DNA of 64,000 nt from Candidatus Pyrohabitans jungbluthii (lineage in GTDB: Archaea > Hydrothermarchaeota > Hydrothermarchaeia > Hydrothermarchaeales > BMS3B), in the NCBI GenBank assembly GCA_002010065.2, contig MTMD02000008.1:256001-320000 (forward strand), in the 5' to 3' direction. Shown here in pieces: positions 7,432 through 48,276 of the stretch (positions within the stretch are counted from its first letter, which is position 1; each line of letters opens with the position of its first letter). The notes below the pieces were generated by a model. The model searched no databases and was not told the origin of the DNA. It saw nothing but the letters and a program-made list of their open reading frames with translations. The position numbers and the translations under genes are program-made.

Positions 7432-8109
7432 CTACTCCAGCACCCTTATCCCCTCTCGCGTAAAGCCCAGGCGGAGTATATCTTTGGGATGCTCAGTGCC
7501 CTTGAGCTTGCGCACCTGCAGCCCCGGCTTAAATGTAGATGGCGTCTCCCCCTGCTGTAGGTAGAGGTATATAACACCGTCCGCCATGTAACTCTCAGGC
7601 GCAGTCGTCGCCTCGGGAGAAAACTCCGCCACAAGCAGGGTTAGTGTCTCCATCGCCTTGAGCACAGTAAAGAACTCATGCAGGAAGCGGCGGTACTCCT
7701 GGGGCTCGGTGAAGGTGTACGAGAAGGGGGTTATGGAGTCTATCACCACTCTGCGAGCATCGCTCCGGCGTATGAAGTTTATGGTCATGTCCAGCGCTTT
7801 GCGAGCACCTCTCTTCATGAGCACCTCGCTTATGTCCAGAAACTTCACCAAGCCCTCGTCGACGAGACGGCGGTCGTAGAAGCGGTAGCTCGCCATATAC
7901 TTGTGAATCTGGTCCACCGGCTCTGAGATGGCGGTGACGTATATCCCGAGTTCTCCCAGCTTTGCTCCACGAAAGAGGCACTGCATGCAGAAGGTGGTTT
8001 TCCCTGTGCCGGGCTCGCCCGCGACGAGAATAACACTGGGCGTTGGCAAACCGCCGCCTATGCGCTCGTCCAAGCCCTTAACTCCGGTGGAGGCTCTCTT
8101 TATTTCCAT
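7432..8109 (-). CDS. KaiC/RAD55-family RecA-superfamily ATPase
   Basis: STGVKGLD, GEPGTGKT Walker A, RVVIDSI, KLKG. Confidence 0.9.
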   Translation of the reverse strand: MEIKRASTGVKGLDERIGGGLPTPSVILVAGEPGTGKTTFCMQCLFRGAKLGELGIYVTAISEPVDQIHKYMASYRFYDRRLVDEGLVKFLDISEVLMKRGARKALDMTINFIRRSDARRVVIDSITPFSYTFTEPQEYRRFLHEFFTVLKAMETLTLLVAEFSPEATTAPESYMADGVIYLYLQQGETPSTFKPGLQVRKLKGTEHPKDILRLGFTREGIRVLE

Positions 8110-8512
8110 GGTAACACCCTGCTCTCTTTCAGCGAAGCATCATTACTTTTGAACAGAAGTAGTATTTAAGCCTTGATTTAGAGCGTTGTGAAAGTGAAAT
8201 ACGGATGCCACATGTGTGGAGCACGGACTTAATCAGATGGTGCCTCGCAGCAGAGAGGATTAGATTCAATTTGTTTGTAGTCCTTTCCTGACACAATAAC
8301 TAAACAACAATCTTACTTTTTTACAGTTTGAGAAAAATAAATTATTTGTATCATGCCGGATAGGAATAAACTGAGGTTCGCCCAGAGACTATGCTTAAGC
8401 CAACTGCCAGAGTCTTAGGCTTTGCTACCTCCTGGGCAACCTCCCTCCTCACCTTTAACACAGCGCTTAACCGTCATACTCAGTATGTATTTTATCAGGC
8501 TAACCTAGGAAA

Positions 8513-9556
8513 TCAGTGCCAGTGCCTGTGATGTGTATCCGGGCAGTGAGGGTGGGTGTGTATAACCTCCTCATGCACATGCGCATGGATGTGGTAACCC
8601 TCTATTCCCTCGCTGTGCTCGTGGGTGTGGTGCCCGTCGTCGTGGCGGTGGTAGTGCTCGTGCACAACCCTAGCATGGTGATGCTCATGCGCATGGCTTT
8701 CGCTCACCATGAGCAGAGCTCCAGCGATCATGAGCAGAGTAGCAGGGAGCATAACCCAGCCCATCCACTCACCCAGAATCAAGACTGACACGGCAGCGCC
8801 CACAAAAGGCGCGAGACTGAAGAACGCCGCCGCTCTCGCAGCGCCAAGCCCCTGAAGCGCCATGATAAAGAGCACCAGGCTGAGACCATAACTGAAGGCA
8901 CCGAAGAGCAGGGCGATAATTATCGTTCCGCTGAGGGACAGGCTAATGCCAAGTGAAGCTGCAATGCCCAGTGATATCAGCCCGCCAGCTAAGCCCTTGC
9001 TCATTGCTATAAAAATGGGGTCTCTATCAGATATCATGCCTGTTAAGTTGTTGTCCAGGCCCCAGAAAAACATCGCAAGGACCACGAGCAATGAGCCCAG
9101 AACATTAAACTGCCCCAGGCTGGAATCCCATGTTAAGAGCACTCCACCTATGCTCATGGAGAGGAGAGCCGCCCAGAAGCGTTTTCCCGCATGCTCTTTG
9201 AATATCATAAAGGCGATTAAGGCGGTGGCAATGCTTTCGAGGTTGAGCAGCAGGGAGGTGGCAAAACCTGAGATTAAACTCAGCCCCTTCATTAACAGGA
9301 TGGGGGCGAGCACACCGCCGGCAATTATGGCACCCCCTAGCCAGGGTATGTCCTGCTTTCTAAGGTAAATCTTCCTCTCCGCGCCAAGACTTCTTTTGAC
9401 AGCCCAGAATAGGAATAAGCCAAAGAAGGCGCCAAGATAGAGAAAACCAGCCAAAGCTACCGGTGGAATCTCTCTCACAAGGATTTTGGCTATTGGGGGG
9501 CTGATTCCAAATAAAATGGCTGATAATAATATGTAAGCCAGTGAACGCGCGTTCAT
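8513..9556 (-). CDS. DMT/EamA transporter with His-rich C-terminal tail
   Basis: About 10 TM segments followed by ~60 aa of HxH repeats ending HPHCPDTHHRHWH. Confidence 0.85.
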   Translation of the reverse strand: MNARSLAYILLSAILFGISPPIAKILVREIPPVALAGFLYLGAFFGLFLFWAVKRSLGAERKIYLRKQDIPWLGGAIIAGGVLAPILLMKGLSLISGFATSLLLNLESIATALIAFMIFKEHAGKRFWAALLSMSIGGVLLTWDSSLGQFNVLGSLLVVLAMFFWGLDNNLTGMISDRDPIFIAMSKGLAGGLISLGIAASLGISLSLSGTIIIALLFGAFSYGLSLVLFIMALQGLGAARAAAFFSLAPFVGAAVSVLILGEWMGWVMLPATLLMIAGALLMVSESHAHEHHHARVVHEHYHRHDDGHHTHEHSEGIEGYHIHAHVHEEVIHTHPHCPDTHHRHWH

Positions 9557-9686
9557 GACCACACCCTACTATCTTCTACTTGAAATCCCAGGCTCACATC
9601 AGTATAAAATTCTGCCTCACCTGTAATAAGATTGAGAGTTACCCGCTCAGTAAGGGATATAAGCATTGAAGTAAAATTTAAAACTT

Positions 9687-10628
9687 ATGCAAAAGCTTGC
9701 GGAAATCTTCAAAACCACCCTGGCGATTAAGCGTGAGGAAGAGGTGCTGCTTGTCACCGACAACGCCATGCTTGAGGTGGCTTCGCTCATAGAGAGCGCC
9801 CTGCGAGAGCTTAGCCAAGAGGTTCTCGTGCTTAAAATGAAGCCCCGCTCAATGCATGGCGAGGAGCCGCCCCGCGTGGTGGCTGAGGCAATGAAGCATG
9901 CAAGCGTCGTCGTCGCCCCAACGAGCAAATCTCTGAGCCATACCGCAGCAAGGAAGCGCGCCTGCGAGGCTGGGGCGAGAGTAGCCACGCTACCTGGGAT
10001 TACACTGGAGATGCTAACCTCAGGGGGGATGTTAGCGGACTACCGCGAGGTTAAGCGCCTTGCCGAAGCCGTCGCCGAGAGGCTCAGCAGGGCAGAGAGC
10101 ATACGGATAAAAACAGACCTTGGCACAGACTTCACCGCCAGCTTAAAAGGCAGAAAAGCCTTAGCCGACACCGGGATAATCACAAAGCCAGGCGACTTCG
10201 GCAACCTCCCAGCCGGAGAAGGTTTCATAGCACCGGTAGAGGGCGAGAGCGAGGGTGTGCTTGTCTTCGACGGCTCCTTCGGAATGATGGGGAAGCTTAC
10301 AAAGCCTTTAAAGATACGCGTAGCCGAGGGAAAGGCGGTTGAGGTTGAGGGCGACGATGGCAGGATAAGCGCGCTCTTTCAACGCTATGAGAATGCAAGC
10401 AACGTCGCCGAGATAGGGATAGGTGTCAACCCAATGGCACGGGTTATAGGCAACGTTCTCGAGGATGAGAAGGCTTTCCGCACCATCCACGTAGCCTTTG
10501 GAGACAACCACACCTTCGGCGGCGCGACGCGTGCTGAGGTGCACCTCGATGGGGTCATGCTTAATCCTGACGTCTGGCTCGACGATGAGAAGCTCATGGA
10601 AAAGGGGAAGCTGCTATGTTTCCAGTGA
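9687..10628 (+). CDS. Thermophilic aminopeptidase (M29-like)
   Basis: GNLPAGE, AEIGIGVNP, LEDEK, HVAFGDN, HLDG. Confidence 0.85.
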   Translation: MQKLAEIFKTTLAIKREEEVLLVTDNAMLEVASLIESALRELSQEVLVLKMKPRSMHGEEPPRVVAEAMKHASVVVAPTSKSLSHTAARKRACEAGARVATLPGITLEMLTSGGMLADYREVKRLAEAVAERLSRAESIRIKTDLGTDFTASLKGRKALADTGIITKPGDFGNLPAGEGFIAPVEGESEGVLVFDGSFGMMGKLTKPLKIRVAEGKAVEVEGDDGRISALFQRYENASNVAEIGIGVNPMARVIGNVLEDEKAFRTIHVAFGDNHTFGGATRAEVHLDGVMLNPDVWLDDEKLMEKGKLLCFQ

Positions 10629-11245
10629 TGCTCAACCTGCGCGATAGGCGAGTGGTGGTATTCGGCGGGGGTAAAGTGGCTGAACGAAGGGTGGCAAAGC
10701 TTCTCAGCGCAGGCGCTAGGGTTAAGGTAGTGAGCAAAAGCTTTACACGCACCATCAAAAAGCTCGAAGGGCAGAATCTAACCCTCATAAAGGCGGAGCT
10801 CAGCGAAGCAAACATAGCGCAACACCTGCGTGACGCTCTGCTTGTTTTCGCTGCCACCGATGATGCAGAGCTGAATGAAACCATAGCTAACTTGGCGAGG
10901 CGCGAGGGCAAGCTTGTGAACCGCGCAGATGGTGTTGCTGACTTTGTTGTACCTGCCTCCTTTGAGGTGGGCGACGTTATTATTGCAGTTTCTACTCATG
11001 GCAAGAGTCCTGCAACTGCGAAAATAATAAAAAGGAGAATAAAAAAAGCCGTGACACAAGAAGATATTCTCTTGGTAGAGTTACAAGAATTTTTGAGAGA
11101 AGCCTTGAAGCGCAGAATACCGAGCCAAGCTGAGAGGAGCCGCATGCTTAAGGCAATTGCTCATGATGAGAAAATTCTTGAGATGCTGAGAAGGGGCAAC
11201 TTAGAAGGGGCGAAAGCCCTGGGGCTCAAGTATCTGGAGGCGTGA
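10616..11245 (+). CDS. sirC: Precorrin-2 dehydrogenase / sirohydrochlorin ferrochelatase
   Basis: GGGKVAERR, AATDD, VST.GKSP; first gene of the hem cluster. Confidence 0.9.
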   Translation: MFPVMLNLRDRRVVVFGGGKVAERRVAKLLSAGARVKVVSKSFTRTIKKLEGQNLTLIKAELSEANIAQHLRDALLVFAATDDAELNETIANLARREGKLVNRADGVADFVVPASFEVGDVIIAVSTHGKSPATAKIIKRRIKKAVTQEDILLVELQEFLREALKRRIPSQAERSRMLKAIAHDEKILEMLRRGNLEGAKALGLKYLEA

Positions 11246-23750: not shown

Positions 23751-24275
23751 TCAGTCTCCACCCTTGCCCGACTTTGAAAACTCACGGGGGTGACGCCTCT
23801 TACCCCTGCGCCTGAAGATGTCTCTCAGCTCCGTATGGATAAAGCCCTTCTCCTCTATGTCGGCGCGCTCCTCCTTTACAGTGAGCTTTATCACAACCAC
23901 AAGGGCAAGGATGAAGAAGGTTGCCATTCCAAGGGTGAGAGGTGGGATTTCAAGGGCGCCTGTGAGTATCACCTCCCTGAGCACGGCAACGAGCGCAATC
24001 TCTGCCATGAAGCTCACAGCAACGCGGTGCTCCTTAAGGTAAACTATGAGCATGCGGTAGGTCTCAACCAGTATCATTATGTACAGAATCTCTGAAACCA
24101 CGCGCTTGAATTCAAAGGCGTGGGATATCTCAAAGACTATCTTAAGGAGCACCTTCAGGCTTACGTAGAAAATTATGATGGAAAGGGCGATTATTATAAG
24201 GTCTTGGGTGGTCTCCAGAGTCTTCCTGAAAACATCGTGAACTCTGCGGTAAAGCACCTGTTGCTCCTCGCTCAT
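23751..24275 (-). CDS. Phosphate-starvation-inducible PsiE-family membrane protein
   Basis: LYIMILVETYRMLIVYLKEHRVAV..MAEIALVAVLREVI. Confidence 0.85.
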   Translation of the reverse strand: MSEEQQVLYRRVHDVFRKTLETTQDLIIIALSIIIFYVSLKVLLKIVFEISHAFEFKRVVSEILYIMILVETYRMLIVYLKEHRVAVSFMAEIALVAVLREVILTGALEIPPLTLGMATFFILALVVVIKLTVKEERADIEEKGFIHTELRDIFRRRGKRRHPREFSKSGKGGD

Positions 24276-25420
24276 TTTCTCCCACCCAGCTTTGCGCGCG
24301 TCGTCATAACCTCTCCGCCGCGAACGAAGGTTATCTCTATCTCCTGCCCCACCTGCTTGGAGGATATAATTTCCACCAGCTCCTCCATGGAGGCGACTTT
24401 CTCTCCATCTATCTCAACGATTATGTCGCCGCCTATTGTGAGAATGTAGCCCCGGTAAATTACCTGCACCTCGCCGCCGCGCAGACCCGCTTTATCTGCA
24501 GGACTGCCTGGCACTACCTCAACAACCATAGCACCCTCCTTTACGGGAAGGTTAAGCACCCGCGCGAGTTCCTCGGTGACTGTTATACCCGTTATGCCGA
24601 GCCACGGGCGACGCTTTATCTCTCGATCTTCCTGAATCATCCTCTCCATTATAACCTTAGCCTTGTTTATGGGTATCGCGAAGCCTATGCCTATGCTGCC
24701 TCCGCTTGTAGTGAGTATGGCAGTGTTTATCCCTATAACCTCCCCGCGAGAGTTCACCAGAGGCCCACCGGAGTTGCCAGGGTTAATAGAGGCGTCCGTC
24801 TGTATTAACCCCTCCATTATGTAGCCATGCTCGCTGCGTATACTCCTGTTCAAGGAGCTCACTATGCCCATCGTCGCTGTGCGGTCCAACCCAAATGGGT
24901 TACCTATCGCTATCACCAGGTCGCCCACGCGCAGCGTTGAGGAGTCCCCCAAGGGGGCTACTTCCAGGTTCTCAGGGGGGTTGAGGATTTTTATCACAGC
25001 TATGTCGTTGGCAGGGTCGCTCCCTATTAGCTCCGCCTCATAGCTCTCCCCGCTGCTCAGTGTTACCTCAATCTCGTCGGCATTCTCAATAACGTGGTTG
25101 TTTGTGAGCACGTACCCGTCCTTGGTGACAACTATACCAGAGCCTGTGCCGCGCTGAGGGATTACCTCAAAGAAGAATCCACGCCTGAGCACCGTCGAGG
25201 TTATGTGAACCACGCTGGGTGAAACTCTGTTGTAGGCGAGGTTGACCACATCCTCAATCGAGCCCGTGATGTTAATCACCGTATACTTCGTCTCCACCTC
25301 TGGCGCAGGCTTCTCCAGAGAGAGAGTGGCGAGATAGCCACCTGCAGCACCCGCAACAAGCGCAACGAGCATGTAGGAAAGGAGTTTCACCACTTTATTT
25401 GGCTTCAATTTACCCACCAC
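24272..25420 (-). CDS. htrA: HtrA/DegP serine protease with PDZ domain
   Basis: GTGSG, LTNNHV, IQTDASINPGNSGGPL, PDZ; N-terminal TM. Confidence 0.95.
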   Translation of the reverse strand: MVGKLKPNKVVKLLSYMLVALVAGAAGGYLATLSLEKPAPEVETKYTVINITGSIEDVVNLAYNRVSPSVVHITSTVLRRGFFFEVIPQRGTGSGIVVTKDGYVLTNNHVIENADEIEVTLSSGESYEAELIGSDPANDIAVIKILNPPENLEVAPLGDSSTLRVGDLVIAIGNPFGLDRTATMGIVSSLNRSIRSEHGYIMEGLIQTDASINPGNSGGPLVNSRGEVIGINTAILTTSGGSIGIGFAIPINKAKVIMERMIQEDREIKRRPWLGITGITVTEELARVLNLPVKEGAMVVEVVPGSPADKAGLRGGEVQVIYRGYILTIGGDIIVEIDGEKVASMEELVEIISSKQVGQEIEITFVRGGEVMTTRAKLGGRK

Positions 25421-25503: not shown

Positions 25504-25526
25504 TTTAGTAACATGATGTTACTAAA
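25504..25526. promoter_or_regulatory. Perfect Phr-type palindromic operator
   Basis: TTTAGTAAC-ATGAT-GTTACTAAA between divergent htrA and hsp20. Confidence 0.8.
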
Positions 25527-25580: not shown

Positions 25581-25594
25581 AGGAGGTGATGTGC

Positions 25595-26095
25595 ATGTGG
25601 AGGAGAAGGAGGATATTTGATGATTTCTTCCGCGAACTTGAGGAAGTTGACAGGCTCTTCGACAGGATGTTCGAATCAATGCGCTCATGGCAGGGTGTCA
25701 ACCTTGAGGAGCCTCTCTACTGGGGATTCTCAGTGCGAGTAGGACCAAGTGGTGTACCCGAGATTCAGACCTTCGGCAATGTGGAGACCTCGCCAACGCT
25801 TCGCGCAGGCGTTCGCGAGCCCTATGTGGAAACAATGGTGGACGAGAAGAACGGCGAACTCGTGGTCACGGCGGAGATTCCAGGCGTTACCAAGGAGGAC
25901 ATAAAAATCAACGCCACAGAGAGCAGCGTTGAGATAGAGGCAGAGCGCGATGACAGGAAGTACCATAAGGTTGTTGCCCTTGATGCTGAGGTTGATCCCA
26001 GCTCTGCGAAGGCAAGGTACAACAACGGCGTACTCGAGATCAAGTTCAAGCTCAAGGCTCCGCCCAAGAAAGGTGTTAACGTAAAAGTTGAGTAA
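25595..26095 (+). CDS. hsp20: Archaeal small heat-shock protein Hsp20
   Basis: WGFSVRVGPSG.P.IQTFGN, AEIPGV.KEDI, A.YNNGVLEI. Confidence 0.93.
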   Translation: MWRRRRIFDDFFRELEEVDRLFDRMFESMRSWQGVNLEEPLYWGFSVRVGPSGVPEIQTFGNVETSPTLRAGVREPYVETMVDEKNGELVVTAEIPGVTKEDIKINATESSVEIEAERDDRKYHKVVALDAEVDPSSAKARYNNGVLEIKFKLKAPPKKGVNVKVE

Positions 26096-26108
26096 GGAGG
26101 TGGTGGGA

Positions 26109-26549
26109 ATGATGCCAGCAGTGTGGGAGGAGATTCGCCGACTTGAGGACAGGATGAACCAGCTCTTCCGTGAGCTCTGGAGCAGCTTCCCCCGCGCAGA
26201 GGAGCGCTTCCCAACCATTGCGGGAGTACGCAGCCCCTTCTGCGATGTGCAGGAGACTGACAAGGAGATAATCATAACCGCAGAGCTTCCGGGGGTTAGC
26301 AAGGAGGACATAAAGATAAACGCCACAGAGCACGAGGTGGAGATAGAGGCAGAGGTAAAGCGTGAGGAGGAAGAGAAGAAAGAAGGTTACCTCCGCAGTG
26401 AGAGGCAGTACTCCAAGTTCTACCGCTGCCTTGCTCTGCCAGCGGAGGTTGATCCCGGCAAAGCCAAGGCAACCTACAAGAACGGCGTGCTTGAACTTCG
26501 CTTACCTAAGGTACATGCAGAAAAGAAAACCAGCATAAAAGTTGAGTAG
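26109..26549 (+). CDS. hsp20: Hsp20/alpha-crystallin protein
   Basis: AELPGVSKEDI, SER.YSKFYR, ATYKNGVLEL. Confidence 0.93.
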   Translation: MMPAVWEEIRRLEDRMNQLFRELWSSFPRAEERFPTIAGVRSPFCDVQETDKEIIITAELPGVSKEDIKINATEHEVEIEAEVKREEEEKKEGYLRSERQYSKFYRCLALPAEVDPGKAKATYKNGVLELRLPKVHAEKKTSIKVE

Positions 26550-29436: not shown

Positions 29437-29742
29437 ATGCTTGAAGTTTTAGTAAACGGAGATACCCACGAATACCTCTACTGGAGCACAGCCGAGGTTA
29501 TAGCTCGCGCTGTCGTGGTGGATCGCGAGGAAGAGGCTGAGATAAAGCTCATCAACGTTGCACGCCACCGCAGAGGCGAGGGGATAGGCAGCTTAATATT
29601 AGAGAGGATAATCTCAGACTTCGCCCACAAAAACCTAGTCACCTGGACGTTCAATGGAAGGACCTCGTGGTATGAGAGAAATGGCTTTGAAGTAGCGGAG
29701 GAGCGCGCATCTCTGTTAAAGATGGTGAGAAAAAATCAGTAA
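29437..29742 (+). CDS. GNAT-family acetyltransferase
   Basis: RRGEGIGS..L, WYERNGF. Confidence 0.75.
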   Translation: MLEVLVNGDTHEYLYWSTAEVIARAVVVDREEEAEIKLINVARHRRGEGIGSLILERIISDFAHKNLVTWTFNGRTSWYERNGFEVAEERASLLKMVRKNQ

Positions 29743-30272
29743 TAGAGAAGCTCCCTGAGCTCCTCAATGGCAACCTCTTTCTTTATCTCCTCGCGAATCT
29801 CGCGCTGGAGATACTCCACAACGCGCTTCGCCTCGTTTATCTTCTCGTGCTCCTTCATCAGCTCATGATAAAGCTCACGCAGCCTCTCCACGCGCTCCCA
29901 CCCTCTCATGCGAGAGGTTTCGTCCAGGCGGTGCATCACTTCTGCAAGCTTCGGGAAGGCTGTGAGCACTTCCTCATTGATCTCAGGCAGGAGGGTCTCG
30001 ATGTAAAAGTGATGCGGCGATATCTTCACCTCTATCAGGATGTCCTCGCTAATGTGGTAGTACTTCCTAGGTCTCCCTTTGTCGATCTTCTCCAAGCGAG
30101 TCTCCAGAATACCTGCCTGGCGCATCAACTCGAGGTGTTCAATAACCGCCTTCTGACCAATATTCAGTGTCTGAGAGAGCTCACTAACATAGCATGGCCT
30201 CTCAGACAGTAGCTGGAGAATCTCTCTTCGCGTTTCATTTCCGAGCATATTCAGGAGAATCTCCAGATTCAT
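29736..30272 (-). CDS. phr: Heat-shock transcriptional repressor Phr (ArsR family)
   Basis: LGNETRREILQLL..RPCYVSELS..L.IGQKAVIEHL...KGRPRKYY closely follows Pyrococcus Phr; divergent from hsp20. Confidence 0.85.
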   Translation of the reverse strand: MNLEILLNMLGNETRREILQLLSERPCYVSELSQTLNIGQKAVIEHLELMRQAGILETRLEKIDKGRPRKYYHISEDILIEVKISPHHFYIETLLPEINEEVLTAFPKLAEVMHRLDETSRMRGWERVERLRELYHELMKEHEKINEAKRVVEYLQREIREEIKKEVAIEELRELLYY

Positions 30273-30306
30273 GCCTATTAAAGCGGGCGTTAACAATGTA
30301 AAAAAT

Positions 30307-30329
30307 TTTATTAACAAATGGTAAGAAAA
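30307..30329. promoter_or_regulatory. Phr-type operator between phr and hsp20
   Basis: TTTATTAAC-AAATG-GTAAGAAAA. Confidence 0.6.
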
Positions 30330-30846: not shown

Positions 30847-30895
30847 ATTTCTTACTAAAGGTAAGGAAATTATTTAGTAACAAAAAGTTAGTAAA
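30847..30895. promoter_or_regulatory. Phr-type operators upstream of trx-cdc48-cdc48
   Basis: ATTTCTTAC-TAAAG-GTAAGGAAA (30847) and TTTAGTAAC-AAAAA-GTTAGTAAA (30873). Confidence 0.7.
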
Positions 30896-30907: not shown

Positions 30908-31168
30908 ATGGAGGAAGGTATACTCATCGAACTTTTCACCTCACCAACGTGCCCATACTGTCCGCGCGCCAAGGAGGTTGCAGAGAGGATAGTCAAGAGG
31001 ATGCCAAAGGTGCTTCTCATAGAGCGCGACGTTTCTCAGCCAGAAAACGCTGAGATAGCGCGGAGCTATGGGATTCAGGGCGTACCAGCGATGGTCATCA
31101 ATGGCAGATACAAGATTTTAGGGGTGCCGAGAGAGGAGCAGCTTCTGCACTACCTCTCCACCCTTTAA
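30908..31168 (+). CDS. Thioredoxin/glutaredoxin-like protein
   Basis: [21 protein letters not shown]. Confidence 0.92.
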
Positions 31169-41906: not shown

Positions 41907-42356
41907 CTACTCCATTACCCGAACCACATCTATCCCACTCTTTTTCAAAACCTCTATGCCGTGCTTGTCGCTGTAGTCCGCGAACACAACCACTCGCTTA
42001 ATGCCCGAGTTTACTATAGCAAGAGCGCACCAGAAGCACGGGTCAACCTGGGTGTAAAGAGTCCCGTCCTTGATGCTCACCCCGTGGTAGGCTGCGTTGA
42101 TAATAGCGTTCATCTCCGCGTGCACAGAGGGACAGGAGTAGTCTATTACGCCTGAAGGTATGCCGTACTTATCCTTGTAGCACGGCACCTCGTCGCCACA
42201 GTTCTCCCACCCGCGGGGCGCACCGTTGTAACCCGTCGCCACGATGCGATCGTCCTTTACGATTATCGCTCCCAGCTTTCGCCTCGAGCATGCGCTTCTC
42301 GAGGCTATTGCATCGATAATCTTCTTGTACATCTCTATCTTTGTGGCTCTTCCCAT
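41907..42356 (-). CDS. dCMP deaminase family (ComEB-like)
   Basis: RS.C.RR.LGA, TGYNG.P, HAE.NA, PC..C. Confidence 0.92.
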   Translation of the reverse strand: MGRATKIEMYKKIIDAIASRSACSRRKLGAIIVKDDRIVATGYNGAPRGWENCGDEVPCYKDKYGIPSGVIDYSCPSVHAEMNAIINAAYHGVSIKDGTLYTQVDPCFWCALAIVNSGIKRVVVFADYSDKHGIEVLKKSGIDVVRVME

Positions 42357-42360
42357 GCTA

Positions 42361-43515
42361 TCACCCGTAATTTTCTAAAGCCTTTTCAATTCTATCCATT
42401 GCCTCGGCAATATTCTCCAGAGAGTTGGCATAGGATATGCGGAGGTGCCCCTCGCCACGCCTGCCGAAGGCAGCGCCAGGGGTAACCGCAACCTTCGCGG
42501 TGTCGAGAATATATTCCGCCAGGGCAGAGGAGTCTGTGGAAATCTCACTCACGTCGGGGAAGACATAGTACGCTGCCTTGGGCTCATGGACCTCGAAGCC
42601 GGGGATATCCTTAAGTCTCTTAATAATATACTGCCTGCGCCTGTCGAACTCCGCCTTCATCGCTTTAACCTCGTCGCGAAGAGACAGCGCCACCACGGCG
42701 GCGTGCTGCGCAAAAGAGCTCGGGGAGATATAGAAGTTCTGCTGGAGCTTGAGCACCTGCGCTATTAGCTGCTTCGGTGCAACGACGTAGCCCAGGCGCC
42801 AGCCGGTCATGGCGTAGAGTTTGGAGAAACCGTCCAGCATAACAGAGCGCTCATAGCCTGCTTTGAGGATGCTTGGGCTTCGCTCTGCATCGTAGACTAA
42901 GCCCGAGTATATTTCATCGCTTATAACCCAAGCTTCAGCCTCGGAGGCAACTTCGCATAGCGCGCGAAGCTCTTCCATGGTGAGGTATGTACCAGTGGGG
43001 TTGGCTGGGGTGTTTATGAGTATCGCCTTTGTGCGCCTGCTGAGCTTCTCCTTAAACTCTTCCAGGTCAAGGGAATAATCCTCTCGCAGGTTTACGCTCA
43101 CAGGCTTGGCGTCGAAAAAACGAATAAAGTTGGGGTAGCACGGGTAGCTTGGATCTGTGATGAGCACTTCATCTCCGGGCTCAAGGAGAGAGGCGAGCAC
43201 AAACTGCAGCGCCAAGCTAACGCCGCCCGTAACGAGTACCTCCTGCGATGGATCCACCTCAACGCCCAGAGTTTCAGATATATGCTCACTAATCGCCTCT
43301 CTAAGTTCGCGGATTCCTCTCGCATCGGTGTAGTGGGTATCCCCACGCTGCATTGCCCTGTACGCCTCATCCACCACCTTTTTAGGCGTTGGAAAGTCAG
43401 GTTCGCCTATCTCCAAATGGATAACCCTCTCGCTCTGCCTCTCAAGACGCTGCGCCTTTGCCAAGATTTCCATCACCTGAAAGGGCTCAATCTGAAGCAC
43501 TCGCCTTGAGAACAT
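42361..43515 (-). CDS. Class I/II PLP-dependent aminotransferase
   Basis: IGEPDF, NPTG, SDEIY, FSK.YAMTGWRLGY. Confidence 0.93.
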   Translation of the reverse strand: MFSRRVLQIEPFQVMEILAKAQRLERQSERVIHLEIGEPDFPTPKKVVDEAYRAMQRGDTHYTDARGIRELREAISEHISETLGVEVDPSQEVLVTGGVSLALQFVLASLLEPGDEVLITDPSYPCYPNFIRFFDAKPVSVNLREDYSLDLEEFKEKLSRRTKAILINTPANPTGTYLTMEELRALCEVASEAEAWVISDEIYSGLVYDAERSPSILKAGYERSVMLDGFSKLYAMTGWRLGYVVAPKQLIAQVLKLQQNFYISPSSFAQHAAVVALSLRDEVKAMKAEFDRRRQYIIKRLKDIPGFEVHEPKAAYYVFPDVSEISTDSSALAEYILDTAKVAVTPGAAFGRRGEGHLRISYANSLENIAEAMDRIEKALENYG

Positions 43516-43516
43516 G

Positions 43517-45421
43517 CTACTTCCTCCTGCGCAACGCGTCTATCTTCTCGCCCACGTAGGCTTCGTCTCTGCCCGTCTTCATCGGCTTAACCTGCGACCT
43601 TCTCTTCAGAAGCCTTTTTAACCTCTCTACCTCTATTCTGAACAGCTCCACCTCCTCGCATACCTCCGCATAGCGACGCTCCAGCTCACTTTTCGCCACC
43701 TTTTCTTTCGAAAGCTCTGCCTTGAGGTCTTTAAGCTTTTTCTCTGCGTCTATCCTCAGTCTCCTTTCATTGATTAGTTCCTTTTTAATATTCTCCTCGA
43801 GCGTTAGCTTTTCTGCAAGAACCTCTTCGATTCTAGCTTTTAGCGAATATATAACCTCTTTTTTATCCTTCAATTCCTTCTCAAGTCTTTCATTTTCCTT
43901 CATCACCTGCTTTAGCCTGCTCAACTCCTCCTCTGTGGCATCCTTTTCCTTCAGAAGTTTTTCAATTTGACTTTTTAATCCGTTGATCTCCCCATCTTTT
44001 TCTTTTAGCTTTGCATTTATGGCAGCAATAGTTTTTTCAAGCTTAGCTTTTTCTGATTCTTCTTCTTTCAATACACCCTCAATTTTGCTTTTTTCTATTT
44101 CCGCAGCCTTTCTCAAATCTTTTTCTCTCTTTATCTCCTCTTTCAATCTGTGCAGTTCCTCTGCAAGTGCTGATTTTTCTTTTTCTAGCTTTTCAAGCTT
44201 TTTATGCATTTTTTTAGACTCTATTTTTAAATTCTCTATTTCTGATTTGAGGGCACTTTTTTCCTCCTCAAGAAGCACAAGCTCTTTCTCAAGCTTCTCA
44301 GCGCTTTTTATTTTCTTCTCTGCCTCTTTAAGCCGCTTTTCAGCCCGCTCAAGCTCTGCAGTGCGCTTTCTGAGCTCCTCCCTGAGTTTCCGCTTTTCAG
44401 CGTCGTCCTCCTCCGGAATGTAGTCTCTGAAGTCTTCCTCCAGAGCAAGAAATAGCTTTTTTCTCGCCTCTGTGGCAGAGTTTAGTATGCTGAGGTAATC
44501 TTCGCGCAGAGATAGTATTCTGCTGTAGCTGTTGAATCTTTCCCCCAGTGCCTCAGCGCGCTTTCGAAGTTCTTCAAGGCTCTTCTCAAGCTCTCTTTCT
44601 TTTTCTACAGCCTCTTTAAGCTCCTCCCTGAGACCTTCGCAGGTGCTGGATGCGCGCTCAACTTTGCGCTTCTCTTCCTCGAGCTTTGCAAGCTTTCTCC
44701 TCTCCTCCTCAAGGAGTGGAGGAATCTTCCTCGCCCCCTCGTCTGCAAGCTCTTTTATTGCATGCCGTAAGGGATCTTTATTCAACACCAGCCCAGTGAT
44801 TCTTATTCTCTCATGGTAGCCAGGGTCCTTAATAAGGTGCTCAAAAAGCACTTCCAGAGGCAGCTCCTCTCCAGCATCGCTGTAAACTCTGCAACCGCGA
44901 AGCAGACGACGAGCTTCTATCAAGAAGCTGTCCCTTATCTCAGCCAGCCTTTCATCTGTCTGGGCTCTTATCTCAGCTACCTTCTTCTCGTACGCATCTC
45001 TGAGCTTCTCTGCCTTATCGCATGCCCTTTGCACCTGCAGCTCAAGCTCCTGGCGATGCCCCTTATGAATTCCCAGCTTCCTCTCCTTTAACCTTATCTC
45101 CTCGGCGAGTTCCAGGTAGAGACGCAGCTTCTCTACGTCGTCTTCAACCGCCTGAGAGAACTTTTCAATCGCAGAGCCAACCTTCTGCATCGCCCCGTCG
45201 AAAAAGTCACGCCTCTCTGGAACAAGACGCATGGCAGAGGTGCAAACAAGGTCAAGATAGCGCTTAGTCTCTGCCGCAAGAACAGAGAGTTCAGCAAGAG
45301 AACTTTCAAGGCTTTCGCTGGCGGAGCGATGCTCTTTCAGAGCTTCCACGCTTTCGACGAGTTTGAACCAGCTTTCTGGAAGGCTCCTAAACTCCTCAGG
45401 GGGTAAAAATTCTGTGCCCAT
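43517..45421 (-). CDS. Uncharacterised long coiled-coil protein B
   Basis: 634 aa, E/K/L heptads, no Walker motifs; paralogous to 45437-47005. Confidence 0.85.
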   Translation of the reverse strand: MGTEFLPPEEFRSLPESWFKLVESVEALKEHRSASESLESSLAELSVLAAETKRYLDLVCTSAMRLVPERRDFFDGAMQKVGSAIEKFSQAVEDDVEKLRLYLELAEEIRLKERKLGIHKGHRQELELQVQRACDKAEKLRDAYEKKVAEIRAQTDERLAEIRDSFLIEARRLLRGCRVYSDAGEELPLEVLFEHLIKDPGYHERIRITGLVLNKDPLRHAIKELADEGARKIPPLLEEERRKLAKLEEEKRKVERASSTCEGLREELKEAVEKERELEKSLEELRKRAEALGERFNSYSRILSLREDYLSILNSATEARKKLFLALEEDFRDYIPEEDDAEKRKLREELRKRTAELERAEKRLKEAEKKIKSAEKLEKELVLLEEEKSALKSEIENLKIESKKMHKKLEKLEKEKSALAEELHRLKEEIKREKDLRKAAEIEKSKIEGVLKEEESEKAKLEKTIAAINAKLKEKDGEINGLKSQIEKLLKEKDATEEELSRLKQVMKENERLEKELKDKKEVIYSLKARIEEVLAEKLTLEENIKKELINERRLRIDAEKKLKDLKAELSKEKVAKSELERRYAEVCEEVELFRIEVERLKRLLKRRSQVKPMKTGRDEAYVGEKIDALRRRK

Positions 45422-45436
45422 AATAACAGCAATGCC

Positions 45437-47005
45437 TTAGCTCCTGATTTTCTCAAGTATATCGAGCAGAGACCTCTCAACCTCAGCCCTGAGGCGGGCA
45501 ATTTCCTCCTCAAGTGCTTTCACTCTGCTCTTTTCCTCTTCAAGCTCTTTCTCGAGTTTTGCCTTCTCATCCTCAAGCTTCTCAGAGGCATTTGTAAACT
45601 TCTCCAGCTCTGCCCTGAGATTCTCAACTTCCCCAGCTAGCCTCAGATTCTCTTCCTTAAGAATTTCAGCTTTCTCCGACTCCCTCCGGCGGAATTCCTC
45701 ATACTCCTTCTCCAGCTCTGAAAGCTTCCTTTCCAGCTCTGAGTTCTTATCCTTTAGACTCGCTATGATGCTATTCCTATCCTCAAGTTCTCTGGCGTAC
45801 CTGCTCACCTTCTCCTTCAGCGCCTCCCTCTCCTCTTTCAAGCTTTCCAGCTGTGAAGCGAGTTTTTGCATCTCCTTCTCAAGCTCTCCTATTCTGGAGA
45901 GCAGGCGCCTCTTCTCAGGGTCGTGCTCTATCTCGAGGTCTCCGAATGTTGCTGCGATGTACTCAAGAAAACCTCTTATCTCAGGGTCAATAGAGTCGAA
46001 GACAGAGGTGAACTCCTCTTTTATTGACAGAATCTCATTGTAATCATCAAAATTTCTGTTTATCCTCTCCTCAAACTGTGCTATCTTATCCTCAAGCTCA
46101 TTTCTGTAATTTTCGAGTTCCTCTCTGCGCTTTTCCACATCTCTGCACGCTTTCTCCAAAGAGTCCAGGTCAGCGAACTCCCTGCTGAGGTTGCGCGCAT
46201 TCTCCATCTCCACCTCTTTTATTCGCCTAGCCTCTTCGATGAGCTCCTGGGCTATGTACCTGAGCACCTCCAGCCTCGCCTCCTCCCCAAGCCCCTCGCG
46301 CTTTAGCCTTATTCCCAGGAAGCTCCGCGAAGGCCTAGCCTCGCGAAGGTATACCTTCTCAATCGCGCTAGGGTCGCGAAGCATAGCCTTAAAGAGCTGC
46401 TCTGGCGTTGTGGGCTCACCCGCATAGTAAAGCTCGTAGTCCCCCACAATGCCAGTAGCCTTTTCCTCAAACTTCGCCTGGAGATCGTACAACCCCTTTT
46501 CCACCCGCGCCTTAATCTTCTCCTTCGCAAGCTTAAGCTCGCGCTGCCTCTCAAAGAACCTCGTGCACAGTGTCGCGACGCGAGCATCCACTTCTTTAAA
46601 TTCTTTATTTATCTTCCCTATTTCCTCCCTCAGCGCAGAAACTTCTCGCTTAATTGCAATGAACTTCTCAAGCTTCTCAAGCTCCTCCTTAACCTTAGAT
46701 GCCAGATCCTTCAAACCCTGCTCTATGCCCGCGGTTCTGTGGTCCACCTCGGCGCGAATCTCCGGCATGTGCCTCTTCGCTGAGCGCGCAAGCACATCAA
46801 GCTCAGTTAACAGATGTTCGAGATTTTTATTTATCTCAGCCAAAGTGCGTCTGAACGCAGGCTGCTCACCTGAGCTGAACTCTGCGATAGCGTCTATTTG
46901 CCTAGCTACCGCGTACCACTCCTCCTTAAAATCAGCACACCGCCTCTCAAGCTCAGCTGGTGATAATAACGCGTCGGTCACTCTCTCCCTCACATCCTTT
47001 TTCAA
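45437..47005 (-). CDS. Uncharacterised long coiled-coil protein A
   Basis: 522 aa, TTG start, heptads, no Walker motifs. Confidence 0.85.
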   Translation of the reverse strand: MKKDVRERVTDALLSPAELERRCADFKEEWYAVARQIDAIAEFSSGEQPAFRRTLAEINKNLEHLLTELDVLARSAKRHMPEIRAEVDHRTAGIEQGLKDLASKVKEELEKLEKFIAIKREVSALREEIGKINKEFKEVDARVATLCTRFFERQRELKLAKEKIKARVEKGLYDLQAKFEEKATGIVGDYELYYAGEPTTPEQLFKAMLRDPSAIEKVYLREARPSRSFLGIRLKREGLGEEARLEVLRYIAQELIEEARRIKEVEMENARNLSREFADLDSLEKACRDVEKRREELENYRNELEDKIAQFEERINRNFDDYNEILSIKEEFTSVFDSIDPEIRGFLEYIAATFGDLEIEHDPEKRRLLSRIGELEKEMQKLASQLESLKEEREALKEKVSRYARELEDRNSIIASLKDKNSELERKLSELEKEYEEFRRRESEKAEILKEENLRLAGEVENLRAELEKFTNASEKLEDEKAKLEKELEEEKSRVKALEEEIARLRAEVERSLLDILEKIRS

Positions 47006-47061
47006 TTAGGTGGTAAGCAGAAATATATATACGTTTAGGTAGAGTAAAATAGGGTGGGATA

Positions 47062-48276
47062 ATGGGAGAAGTTATCGCAAGCTACAGAATAGACGCAGAT
47101 GACATAAAAGTAGCTGCCCGCGCAATAGCAATGGAGCAGAGCACGGGCACGTGGACGAAGGTTAGCACCGCCACGCAGGAGATTCACGAGAAGTACGGCG
47201 CCAAGGTTGTGGAGGTGGATGAGGAGGCGAAGGTTGCAAAGATCGCATTTCCCGTGGAGGATTTCAGCCTGGAGATAGGCGGCATACCCAACATCCTGAG
47301 TATAATCGCAGGCAACCTCTTCGGCTTGCGGGAAGTTCGCGCTGTTAAGCTTCTCGATGTCGAATTTCCCCGCGAGATTGTAACCTTTTTCCAGGGACCC
47401 AACTTCGGCATAGAAGGTGTGAGGAAGCTTGTGGGAACCTCGCAAACGAAGCGCCCGCACGTGGGCACAATTATAAAGCCCAAGATAGGCCTGCCCCCTG
47501 AGCGCTTTGCAGAAGTTGCATATGAGGCTGCGATGGGCGGCTTGGACTTTATCAAGGACGATGAAACCCTGGCGAATCAGGATTTCTGCCCTCTTGAGGA
47601 TAGGGTATCCCGCACCATGGAGGCGCTGGACAGGGCAAAGGAGGAGACGGGCAAAACCTGCCTCTATGCCGTCAACGTCACCAGCGAAGACATAGTTGAG
47701 ACTGCACAGCTTGCCGTGGACAATGGCGCCAATTGTTTGATGATCGACGTCCTTACATGCGGCTTTCCCGGGCTGAGGGCGCTTAACAGAAACTTCAAGC
47801 TTCCCATACATGTGCACCGCACAATGCATGGAGCAATAACGCGAATGAAGAACCACGGCATCGCTATGCTGGTGTTCGCCAAGCTTGTACGCTTAGCGGG
47901 TGGAGACCAGCTCCATGTGGGCTGCGCCATGGGTAAAATGGAGAGTGAGAACTTCCAGGCGAACTACAATGCGCTTAGAAGCGAGTGGTACGGCTTAAAG
48001 CCGGTGTTCCCAGTCTGCTCCGGCGGCGTTCACCCCGGCTACGTGGAGGGCAATGTCAGAGCTGGAGGCACGGATATAGTGATTCAGGCAGGAGGCGGCG
48101 TGCACGGGCATCCTCTGGGAACGAGAGCGGGAGCTAAAGCGATGATGCAGGCGGTGGAGGCTGTGATGAAGGGCATTCCTTTAGAGGAATACGCCAAGGA
48201 GCATGAGGAGCTGAGGCTTGCGCTGGAGAAGTGGGGTACGCAGCAAATCACGAGGTACTACAGTGAGGAAATGTAG
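47062..48276 (+). CDS. rbcL: RuBisCO form III large subunit
   Basis: EQSTGTWT, GN.FG, KPK.GL, DFIKDDE, HRTMH, loop-6 GKM, SGG, GGG.HGHP. Confidence 0.9.
   Translation: MGEVIASYRIDADDIKVAARAIAMEQSTGTWTKVSTATQEIHEKYGAKVVEVDEEAKVAKIAFPVEDFSLEIGGIPNILSIIAGNLFGLREVRAVKLLDVEFPREIVTFFQGPNFGIEGVRKLVGTSQTKRPHVGTIIKPKIGLPPERFAEVAYEAAMGGLDFIKDDETLANQDFCPLEDRVSRTMEALDRAKEETGKTCLYAVNVTSEDIVETAQLAVDNGANCLMIDVLTCGFPGLRALNRNFKLPIHVHRTMHGAITRMKNHGIAMLVFAKLVRLAGGDQLHVGCAMGKMESENFQANYNALRSEWYGLKPVFPVCSGGVHPGYVEGNVRAGGTDIVIQAGGGVHGHPLGTRAGAKAMMQAVEAVMKGIPLEEYAKEHEELRLALEKWGTQQITRYYSEEM

Follow-up and report, generated by a model that had tools for sequence, protein, structure and literature searches.

Two adjacent genes of Candidatus Pyrohabitans jungbluthii, here called A and B, are the subject of this analysis. 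They lie in a stretch of 64,000 nucleotides (NCBI GenBank assembly GCA_002010065.2, contig MTMD02000008.1, positions 256,001 to 320,000 of the forward strand) that is referred to as the window, and whose own numbering is used for all coordinates unless another contig is named. Gene A occupies 45437..47005 on the minus strand and encodes 522 amino acids (aa), and gene B, at 43517..45421 on the same strand, encodes 634. A first-pass annotation, made from the sequence alone, had described the two as tandem paralogous coiled-coil proteins at the head of a tight operon, and as a candidate undescribed two-component filament or scaffold. The coordinates and lengths of both open reading frames proved to be as it gave them, and the operon is indeed tight, with 15 nt between the stop of A and the start of B, 1 nt between B (stop codon 43517-43519) and an aminotransferase class I/II gene (42361..43515, minus strand, start at 43515), and 4 nt between the latter and a fourth gene, of the deoxycytidine monophosphate (dCMP)/cytidine deaminase family (41907..42356, minus strand). 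On its other side, A is separated by the claimed 56 bp (47006..47061), an AT-rich region in which a box for the heat-shock regulator Phr was not found, from a divergent RuBisCO gene (47062-48276). The start of A is ambiguous, as the longest frame opens with a TTG at 47005 and an alternative GTG at 46991-46993 is where the homologue P0003 begins. We tentatively favour, at somewhat less than an even chance, the view that A and B belong to a family of cysteine-stapled coiled-coil scaffold proteins with roots in the heat-stress response.

Compared by sequence, A and B are true paralogues across approximately 350 N-terminal residues, as had been proposed in spite of their low identity. BLASTP aligned the two over 475 columns with 25% identity (E 3e-13, composition-adjusted), and the pairwise N-terminal alignment that the first-pass annotation had suggested as a check, performed with Smith-Waterman on residues 1-365 of A and 1-345 of B, scored 241, compared to 62 +/- 11 for whole-sequence shuffles of B (z 15.6), a z of 12.6 against shuffles in 15-residue blocks, and a score of 87 for reversed B. 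Because the observed score is far above both the shuffled and the reversed controls, the likeness is not an effect of coiled-coil composition. The blocks quoted as collinear do align, and include EEWY/ESWF, LDVLARSAKRHMPE/LDLVCTSAMRLVPE, AGE..LF, FDDYNEILS/FNSYSRILS, and DPEK/DAEK.

A third paralogue, C, is encoded elsewhere in the same genome (G000:C1:62859-66167; positions 7860-11168 of locus L004, minus strand). This protein of 1102 aa has the same N-terminal domain (N-domain), with both of the cysteines discussed below, followed by a 755-aa heptad tail that ends in ...LLERYIEQKTSALRRV. Its gene is divergent to a methyl-accepting chemotaxis gene, which is followed by two HEAT_PBS-repeat genes. 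C-type matches were also seen in open frames of 1055-1157 aa in genomes G007-G010 and G035. Overall, family members were detected in 30 of 38 Hydrothermarchaeota genomes, and in 17 of the 21 that are of good quality. A word-indexed search returned six A-type and five B-type relatives, with A homologues at 40-85% identity, and the only named matches were to 'Candidatus Pyrohabitans sp.' and 'Euryarchaeota archaeon', Pyrohabitans being placed in Candidatus Hydrothermarchaeota. A profile search against 1.84 billion representatives, which carry no organism names, retrieved 212 proteins at E<=1e-3, of which 45 at E<=1e-30, and approximately 47 that cover most of the profile; the remaining matches span only profile positions ~35-175 and look like unrelated coiled coils. 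Judging from these searches, the family is small and has so far been found only in Hydrothermarchaeota, and a literature search, taken at the level of its listings, returned no publication on it.

The co-occurrence of the pair in related genomes, which the first-pass annotation had wished to see checked, was found in half of the positive genomes: in 15 of 30, distributed over four family-level groups, an A-like gene has a B-like gene immediately after it in the same orientation, and the two frames overlap or nearly abut. The proposed two-component system holds as far as the tandem pair is concerned, and not as to the number of members, which in this genome are three. In a tree built from 57 N-domains, the B types form a clade of 20 rows (support of 99 in the Shimodaira-Hasegawa-like approximate likelihood ratio test, SH-aLRT), the C types one of five rows (95), and A belongs to a third clade of 12 rows (97), with the other A-like sequences and the short forms making up a poorly resolved set.

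In neither Pfam nor NCBIfam, searched with whole A and B and with the N-domains alone, did any model reach its cut-off, all rows being coiled-coil families far below threshold; the confident assignment to a known family that had been named as counting against the proposal was not obtained, and the claim of an undescribed family stands. The best NCBIfam rows were SMC_prok_A (54.5 bits, E 4e-15, with a cut-off of 729.4) and ASRP (46.7 bits, E 2e-12, with a cut-off of 300), both mostly on coiled-coil parts, namely the tail and, in some rows, part of the arm described below, and Rad50 models reached at most 32 bits against cut-offs of at least 700. The best score in a protein atlas was 0.79, below the useful range. 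No Walker A motif (G-x4-GK[ST] or [AG]-x4-GK[ST]) is present in A, B, or C, and the Cys positions in A and B leave no CxxC. The highest 19-residue hydropathy is 0.39 in A and 0.72 in B (overall range of maxima, 0.39-0.84), and because these values stay low, no transmembrane segment is seen in either protein. The motif scan, the hydropathy and the sub-threshold models all agree with the earlier statement that these are not SMC/Rad50 ATPases and carry neither a Walker A motif nor transmembrane segments. One source labels a family member 'chromosome segregation ATPase', which we consider wrong because the protein has no ATPase motif. The rows returned by PHROGs and PADLOC (tape-measure, SbcC, JetC, LmuB) were set aside as coiled-coil noise.

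AlphaFold2 modelled the N-domain of A (residues 1-365; 45911..47005, minus strand) from a 29-row alignment with a mean predicted local distance difference test score (pLDDT) of 88.9 and a predicted template modelling score of 0.67; the paralogous N-domain of B comprises residues 1-345 (44387..45421, minus strand). The predicted helices of A are 16-42, 49-79, a long 81-187, 241-276, 280-313, and 322-354. We read the base of this model as a four-helix bundle, made of helices 16-42, 49-79, 322-354, and the start of 81-187, from which an antiparallel two-helix arm (~113-187 with 241-313) of ~75 residues and ~110 Angstrom is predicted to project, ending in a knob (residues 188-240; 46286..46444, minus strand). 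Such a division into bundle and arm is based on the superpositions reported below and on helix lengths, and was read from the helix list rather than from a contact map. The knob would consist of a strand (190-194), two helices (201-210 and 212-217), a second strand (218-222), and a flexible Gly-aromatic-basic loop (226-237) with pLDDT below 50. Arm and knob folded alone reached a pLDDT of 91.6, and the consensus motifs of the knob in the 29-row alignment are G..LF..L...P and GF.G. A fold-back antiparallel hairpin with a small globular tip had been postulated from the sequence, and this is what AlphaFold2 predicts; the 'hinge' postulated at the same place is the knob of ~50 residues at the tip of this arm and is not of the SMC type, no hinge match standing out. 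A stretch of ~15 residues in the knob loop, namely the G-F/L-F/L-G...K-K segment, is missing from B and from the B-type rows of L007 and L010, and is present in A, C, and most other B types. If A and B do pair, the complex would have only one knob loop, because B is without it.

When the predicted domain was compared with known structures, Foldseek against the PDB yielded 0 matches at E<=1e-3 for both the whole N-domain and the arm alone. VIA-align placed ~139 of the 365 residues of the A N-domain, taken from both chain ends, on four-helix bundles, the best being the de novo design 6egc at Z 15.1, and for the arm gave a flat list with Z falling from 11.2 to 9.2 over 50 unrelated coiled coils (Smc, Rad50, CHMP hairpins, chemoreceptors, dynein stalks) and headed by a Pyrococcus Smc coiled coil (Z 11.2, root mean square deviation (rmsd) 7.0, 157 residues aligned), the Z of 15.1 and that of 11.2 both being within the tool's range for unrelated helical models. 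A profile of the 29 N-domains searched against PDB sequences ranked designed coiled coils first (E 1e-7), and also retrieved the Habc domain of syntaxin-1A (E 1.9e-5 to 4e-4) and apolipophorin. Because de novo designed coiled coils score better in that same search, we read the Habc match as compositional. The Habc chains matched are N-terminal three-helix bundles, and the N-domain of A and B is predicted to contain a four-helix bundle, as closed syntaxin does; A and B show neither a membrane anchor nor evidence of SNARE layers. The dynein stalk, which is among the top Foldseek rows (5ayh, E 0.028; 8i3j), likewise consists of two antiparallel coiled-coil helices, similar in length to the arm, with a small helical domain at the tip; TM-scores of 0.23-0.38, an rmsd above 15 Angstrom, the two strands in the knob of A, and the lack of an AAA+ ring all set A apart from it, and the likeness is an analogy of shape only. 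The shape of the modelled N-domain is of a familiar kind, and we found no specific structural relative of it.

We give hardly any probability to the proposal that the family is a head-less SMC/Rad50-like, or otherwise DNA-associated, coiled-coil chromosome organiser. SMC_prok_A and ASRP are, in fact, the best NCBIfam rows, the PADLOC rows include JetC and LmuB, and the Pyrococcus Smc coiled coil heads the list for the arm; SMC and Rad50 also resemble A and B in that the chain folds back on itself into a long antiparallel arm of two helices, tipped by a small domain, and in Rad50 it is cysteines at the arm apex (the zinc hook) that hold chains together. The bit scores, however, are far below the cut-offs and come mostly from coiled-coil parts, the VIA-align list is flat, and A and B lack the ABC ATPase head, Walker A, the CxxC hook, and the SMC hinge fold. 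Furthermore, their arm is predicted to grow from a four-helix bundle, and they carry an additional tail that is presumably a parallel coiled coil.

The arm is also where the conserved cysteines lie. Cysteines are found at positions 23, 147, and 287 of A and 60, 134, 177, 261, and 588 of B, and in the 29-row alignment C147 of A (codon 46565..46567, minus strand), on the outgoing arm helix, shares a column with C134 of B (45020-45022, minus strand), while C287 (46145..46147, minus strand), on the returning helix, shares one with C261 (44639-44641, minus strand). The first of these columns has Cys in 48 of 58 sequences, in addition to paralogue C, where it is shifted by one column; the second is occupied in 57 sequences, by Cys in 49 of them. 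Both cysteines are kept in 48 of the 58, both are absent from eight (P0027, P0036, P0045, P0046, P0051, P0052, P0054, and P0058), the second alone is present in one, and one sequence is a fragment. When mapped on the tree, these states provide five independent contrasts, four of which go in the same direction, none in the opposite one, and one is unchanged. On this pattern the two cysteines are kept or lost together, and appear evolutionarily coupled. C287 closes the most conserved motif of the family, EFxDLxxLExxC, which spans the only break (277-279) in the returning arm helix, and C147 is roughly opposite that break. An i+j register scan of the two arm helices gave C147 with 279 as the best co-hydrophobic register, and a lower value to the C147-C287 register, but the scan is not decisive because of the break. 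Of the symmetric Cys pair in register that had been claimed, persistence in relatives, coupling, and location on opposite arm helices are supported, and 'in register' is an estimate only, off by 3-8 residues. The genome encodes a PDO-type oxidoreductase (194 bits, cut-off 185), which makes a disulfide plausible; PDO is said to go with cytoplasmic disulfides in thermophiles, as Beeby et al. reportedly described in 2005.

Beyond the N-domain, both proteins end in the long heptad tails previously noted. The tail of A (residues 366-522; 45440..45910, minus strand) has no Pro and a conserved end, ...SLLDILEKIRS, and that of B (residues 346-634; 43520..44386, minus strand) has one Pro and the conserved end DEAYVGEKIDALRRRK; hydrophobic periodicity at 3.5 residues exceeds that of shuffles with z 10.4 and 7.7, respectively. 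Tail length varies from none in the shortest relatives, which are proteins of ~300 aa, through 157 aa in A and 289 aa in B to 755 aa in C. Such tails would fit with a pure cytoskeletal element of the intermediate-filament kind, in which A, B, and C polymerise through them into filaments that give the cell its shape or divide it, with no role in stress and with the adjacency to phr described below being inherited gene order. The three paralogues with very different tail lengths, the tightly coupled tandem pair in 15 of 30 genomes, and the fact that none of the genes A, B, and C of this genome has a Phr box would also fit with it. Crescentin and FilP are bacterial intermediate-filament-like coiled-coil proteins, and A and B resemble them in their long heptad rods, in not binding nucleotides, and in being lineage-restricted. 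In those comparisons, however, the conserved unit of A and B is not the rod, which is optional, but the folded N-domain of 350 residues, and the shortest members do without a tail altogether; Pfam Filament (PF00038) reaches only 20.2 bits for A, with a cut-off of 40, and does not match B, and four of the phylum's good-quality genomes are without the family. On balance, we consider a pure filament unlikely.

The B and C types also have a conserved basic C-terminal peptide, EKIDALRRRK in B (end at 43520-43570), KTSALRRV in C, and EKLKNLRDRK in P0013. This peptide has a putative likeness to the MIT-interacting motif of ESCRT-III proteins. Were it real, the likeness would bear on the possibility, which we regard as very improbable, that the family supplies an ESCRT-III/PspA-like membrane-remodelling or membrane-protecting polymer to a genome in which neither of those families is found. 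No match to the Snf7 (PF03357) or PspA_IM30 (PF04012) models was seen in this genome, and the two models are absent from the Pfam rows listed for B and from the best 25 of the 61 and 74 rows for A. ESCRT-III and PspA-Vipp1 proteins are built on a helical hairpin, with a core of ~220 aa, and assemble into homo- and heteropolymers; PspA is induced by stress and shares an operon with its regulator; and the arm of A superposes locally on the hairpins of CHMP2A-CHMP3 (Z 10.7) and Loki CHMP4-7 (Z 10.1), with an rmsd of 1.4-1.5 over 77-79 aligned residues; the link to a stress operon in relatives and the Gly-aromatic-basic loop of the knob could be added on the same side. Against it, these hairpin matches are short and generic, the hairpin of A and B is much longer and has a four-helix bundle and a knob added to it, neither an amphipathic helix at the N-terminus nor a membrane segment is seen, and the likeness of the C-terminal ends is tentative. 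A MIT domain (PF04212) partner, in addition, was not found in this 99.95%-complete genome by a search that did recover MIT in control genomes.

The evidence that brings heat stress into consideration comes from the gene neighbourhoods of relatives. At five loci (L017, L018, L019, L027, and L033), a gene of ~197 aa for an ArsR-type winged helix-turn-helix protein, here called phr, lies immediately upstream of the family gene in the same orientation, 0-48 nt away, and the family copy there is single, of ~300-320 aa (455 in L018), and has little or no tail. Direct adjacency of a phr and a family gene was found in six of the 24 genomes that have both, in seven places (G011, G021, G022, G023, G024 twice, and G025), and in two more genomes the genes share a contig, at a distance of 5.7 kb (G027) and, in the present genome, of 15.6 kb. 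In G011 the order is phr, family gene, aminotransferase, which links the phr arrangement to the operon of A, B, and the aminotransferase. We find the phr context more informative than the operon with the aminotransferase and deaminase genes. In G024, which is 70% complete with 2% contamination, two phr-family pairs (C199:9380-10624 and C170:7265-8739) and a third family fragment at a contig end were observed, which would stem from a duplication or else from two strains having been binned together.

A close variant of the Phr-box pattern, the palindrome TTAAGTAAC-N5-GTTACTAAA, is found 29-51 nt before the ATG of phr in L017; similar palindromes precede phr in L019 and L027, with a weaker one in L033. 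In three family-level groups the family gene is very probably co-transcribed with phr and under Phr control. The phr that adjoins the family gene in the six relatives has an orthologue in the window (29736-30317, minus strand, 15.6 kb from the family genes). This orthologue matches PDB entry 2p4w, which we take to be Phr, over residues 15-179 (E 6.2e-26); in NCBIfam its top-scoring model is Phr_regulator, with 114.5 bits and thus short of the cut-off of 320 of this narrow model, and Pfam HTH_5 gives 51.7 bits. By sequence, with an ArsR-type winged helix-turn-helix and similarity to P. furiosus Phr, it is a Phr-like regulator. This phr is divergent to hsp20, and is followed by a thioredoxin-like gene and two cdc48 genes.

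Palindromes matching the Phr-box pattern occur three times in the window, compared to 0.10 expected: at 25504-25526, between an HtrA-like protease gene (24272-25420, minus strand) and two hsp20 genes (25586-26549); at 30307-30329, in the divergent phr/hsp20 promoter; and at 30873-30895, before the thioredoxin-like gene (30908-31165) and the two cdc48 genes. Genome-wide, there are seven such sites at <=3 mismatches, another being at G000:C8:281558. A putative Phr regulon can be read in the window from the three palindromes. Phr is a palindrome-binding repressor of hsp20, of an AAA+ ATPase gene, and of its own gene, according to PMC10746257 and PMC6316755, and the elements TTTA, TGGTAA, and AAAA that the latter gives are all present in the palindrome at 30307.

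The family could also be a regulatory partner of Phr, the N-domain binding the helical C-terminal part of the repressor and tuning its release from DNA, with the Cys pair as a heat or redox sensor. The short form co-oriented with phr at five loci at such small gaps, the seven places in six genomes, the coupling of the Cys pair, and the presence of a thioredoxin-like gene within the putative Phr regulon here would be in line with it. In most genomes of the phylum, however, the family gene is away from phr, and long tails and three paralogues are hard to reconcile with a one-to-one regulator; we therefore regard a regulatory partner as distinctly unlikely.

In the scaffold reading that we favour, the Cys pair would be a staple across the arm, as a disulfide or a shared metal site, and would stiffen or gate it; the tails would pair as parallel coiled coils; and A and B, made in equal amounts from the tightly coupled operon, would co-assemble into an elongated scaffold. 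A complex prediction for the two N-domains (alignments A1 and A2) returned a score of 0.00 and a mark of 0.32, values that are uninformative on binding in either direction. The root function would be in the response to heat or oxidative stress, as a stress-made structural or holding scaffold, and we deem this root probable because a phr-adjacent family copy is found in six genomes and a palindrome lies upstream in four of the five such loci scanned. In the genus of the window, the gene would then have moved away from phr, with no recognisable Phr box left, and expanded to three long-tailed forms. A more specific version, a stress-responsive coiled-coil polymer produced upon heat shock under Phr control, which a redox-sensitive Cys pair across the arm would lock or release and which would assemble through its tails into an A/B(/C) scaffold that holds damaged proteins or membranes for the co-regulated Hsp20/CDC48 machinery, has in our view only a slim chance of being correct. 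Neither the PspA nor the ESCRT-III models found a match in this lineage.

Several observations weigh against a stapled scaffold with such roots. As to the stress component, 16 of the 24 genomes with both genes have phr on another contig than the family gene, and no Phr-box-like site within 4 mismatches was seen in 16 of the 20 family loci scanned, among them L018, where phr does lie upstream; at <=3 mismatches, there is none near A, B, or C in this genome, which makes a heat-shock role here an extrapolation from three of 12 family-level groups. The search pattern is the one reportedly described by Keese et al. in 2010, and its validity here is founded on the enrichment of its matches at heat-shock genes. 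As to the staple, P0014 has the second Cys alone, the sign test on the five contrasts gave p 0.125, which is the best value attainable with that number and cannot reach significance, and residue counting puts the partner of C147 at ~279-284, that is, 3-8 residues from C287 along the arm. Lastly, four good-quality genomes (G012, G018, G020, and G036) gave no family match, which indicates that the family is dispensable.

Proteins that join a long coiled coil to a folded end are known, and what is new here is that a predicted four-helix bundle comes together with an arm bearing the coupled Cys pair, with a knob, with a tail that is optional, and with the phr linkage. Hydrothermarchaeota are uncultured, and a conserved coiled-coil system of multiple paralogues, with a confidently predicted architecture that is unmatched, offers an entry point to their cell biology. 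If true, the Cys staple would clearly illustrate how a rod is stabilised covalently in a natural thermophile protein, and might also be a redox switch, and the phr linkage, if functional, would add a structural component to a small archaeal heat-shock regulon of which mainly Hsp20, an AAA+ ATPase, and Phr are known so far. Even if no such reading holds, the family definition is clean, new, and of use for annotation.

On the opposite side of the operon, the RuBisCO gene reaches 423 bits with the type III model (cut-off 497) and 414.5 with the general large-subunit model (cut-off 438), and encodes an enzyme that is form III-like and divergent in sequence. An IF-2B-family gene for ribose-1,5-bisphosphate isomerase (457 bits, cut-off 314) is 3.6 kb from A and converges on the operon end. 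A Pfam scan of the genes around family members at 32 loci found RuBisCO as the divergent neighbour in seven, including this one, an IF-2B-family gene adjoining in six, and the aminotransferase in three, and these neighbours form one conserved block. The first two recurrences would fit with a scaffold for the archaeal pentose-bisphosphate (adenosine monophosphate salvage) enzymes, organising type III RuBisCO and the isomerase. Such a role is highly unlikely, in our opinion, as the isomerase gene is convergent and not co-transcribed, the A-B pair persists in L007-L010 with no RuBisCO gene in that position, and no known RuBisCO-binding motif was identified in the proteins; the linkage may, in fact, be inherited order, because the whole region is a conserved block that also includes the FlaK peptidase and K+ channel genes. 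A promoter and terminator scan of the bacterial type, which is unsuited to archaea, gave counts at or below shuffle expectation.

Lastly, the tails themselves show signs of exchange. Residues 388-498 of the A-type protein P0006 are 100% identical, over 111 aa, to residues 341-451 of the B-type protein P0012, and P0009, which is 95% identical to B, contains an extra 60 aa that are 63.5% identical to the tail of A (E 4e-25). Sequence identities of this kind indicate that tail modules move between A-type and B-type genes. In contigs of sequencing runs X8 and X9, position 44359 is joined to 45666 and position 45766 leads back to 44349, an arrangement that corresponds to the insert seen in the natural relatives; because they were matched at 85% likeness, we attribute these contigs to related strains and not to the present one.

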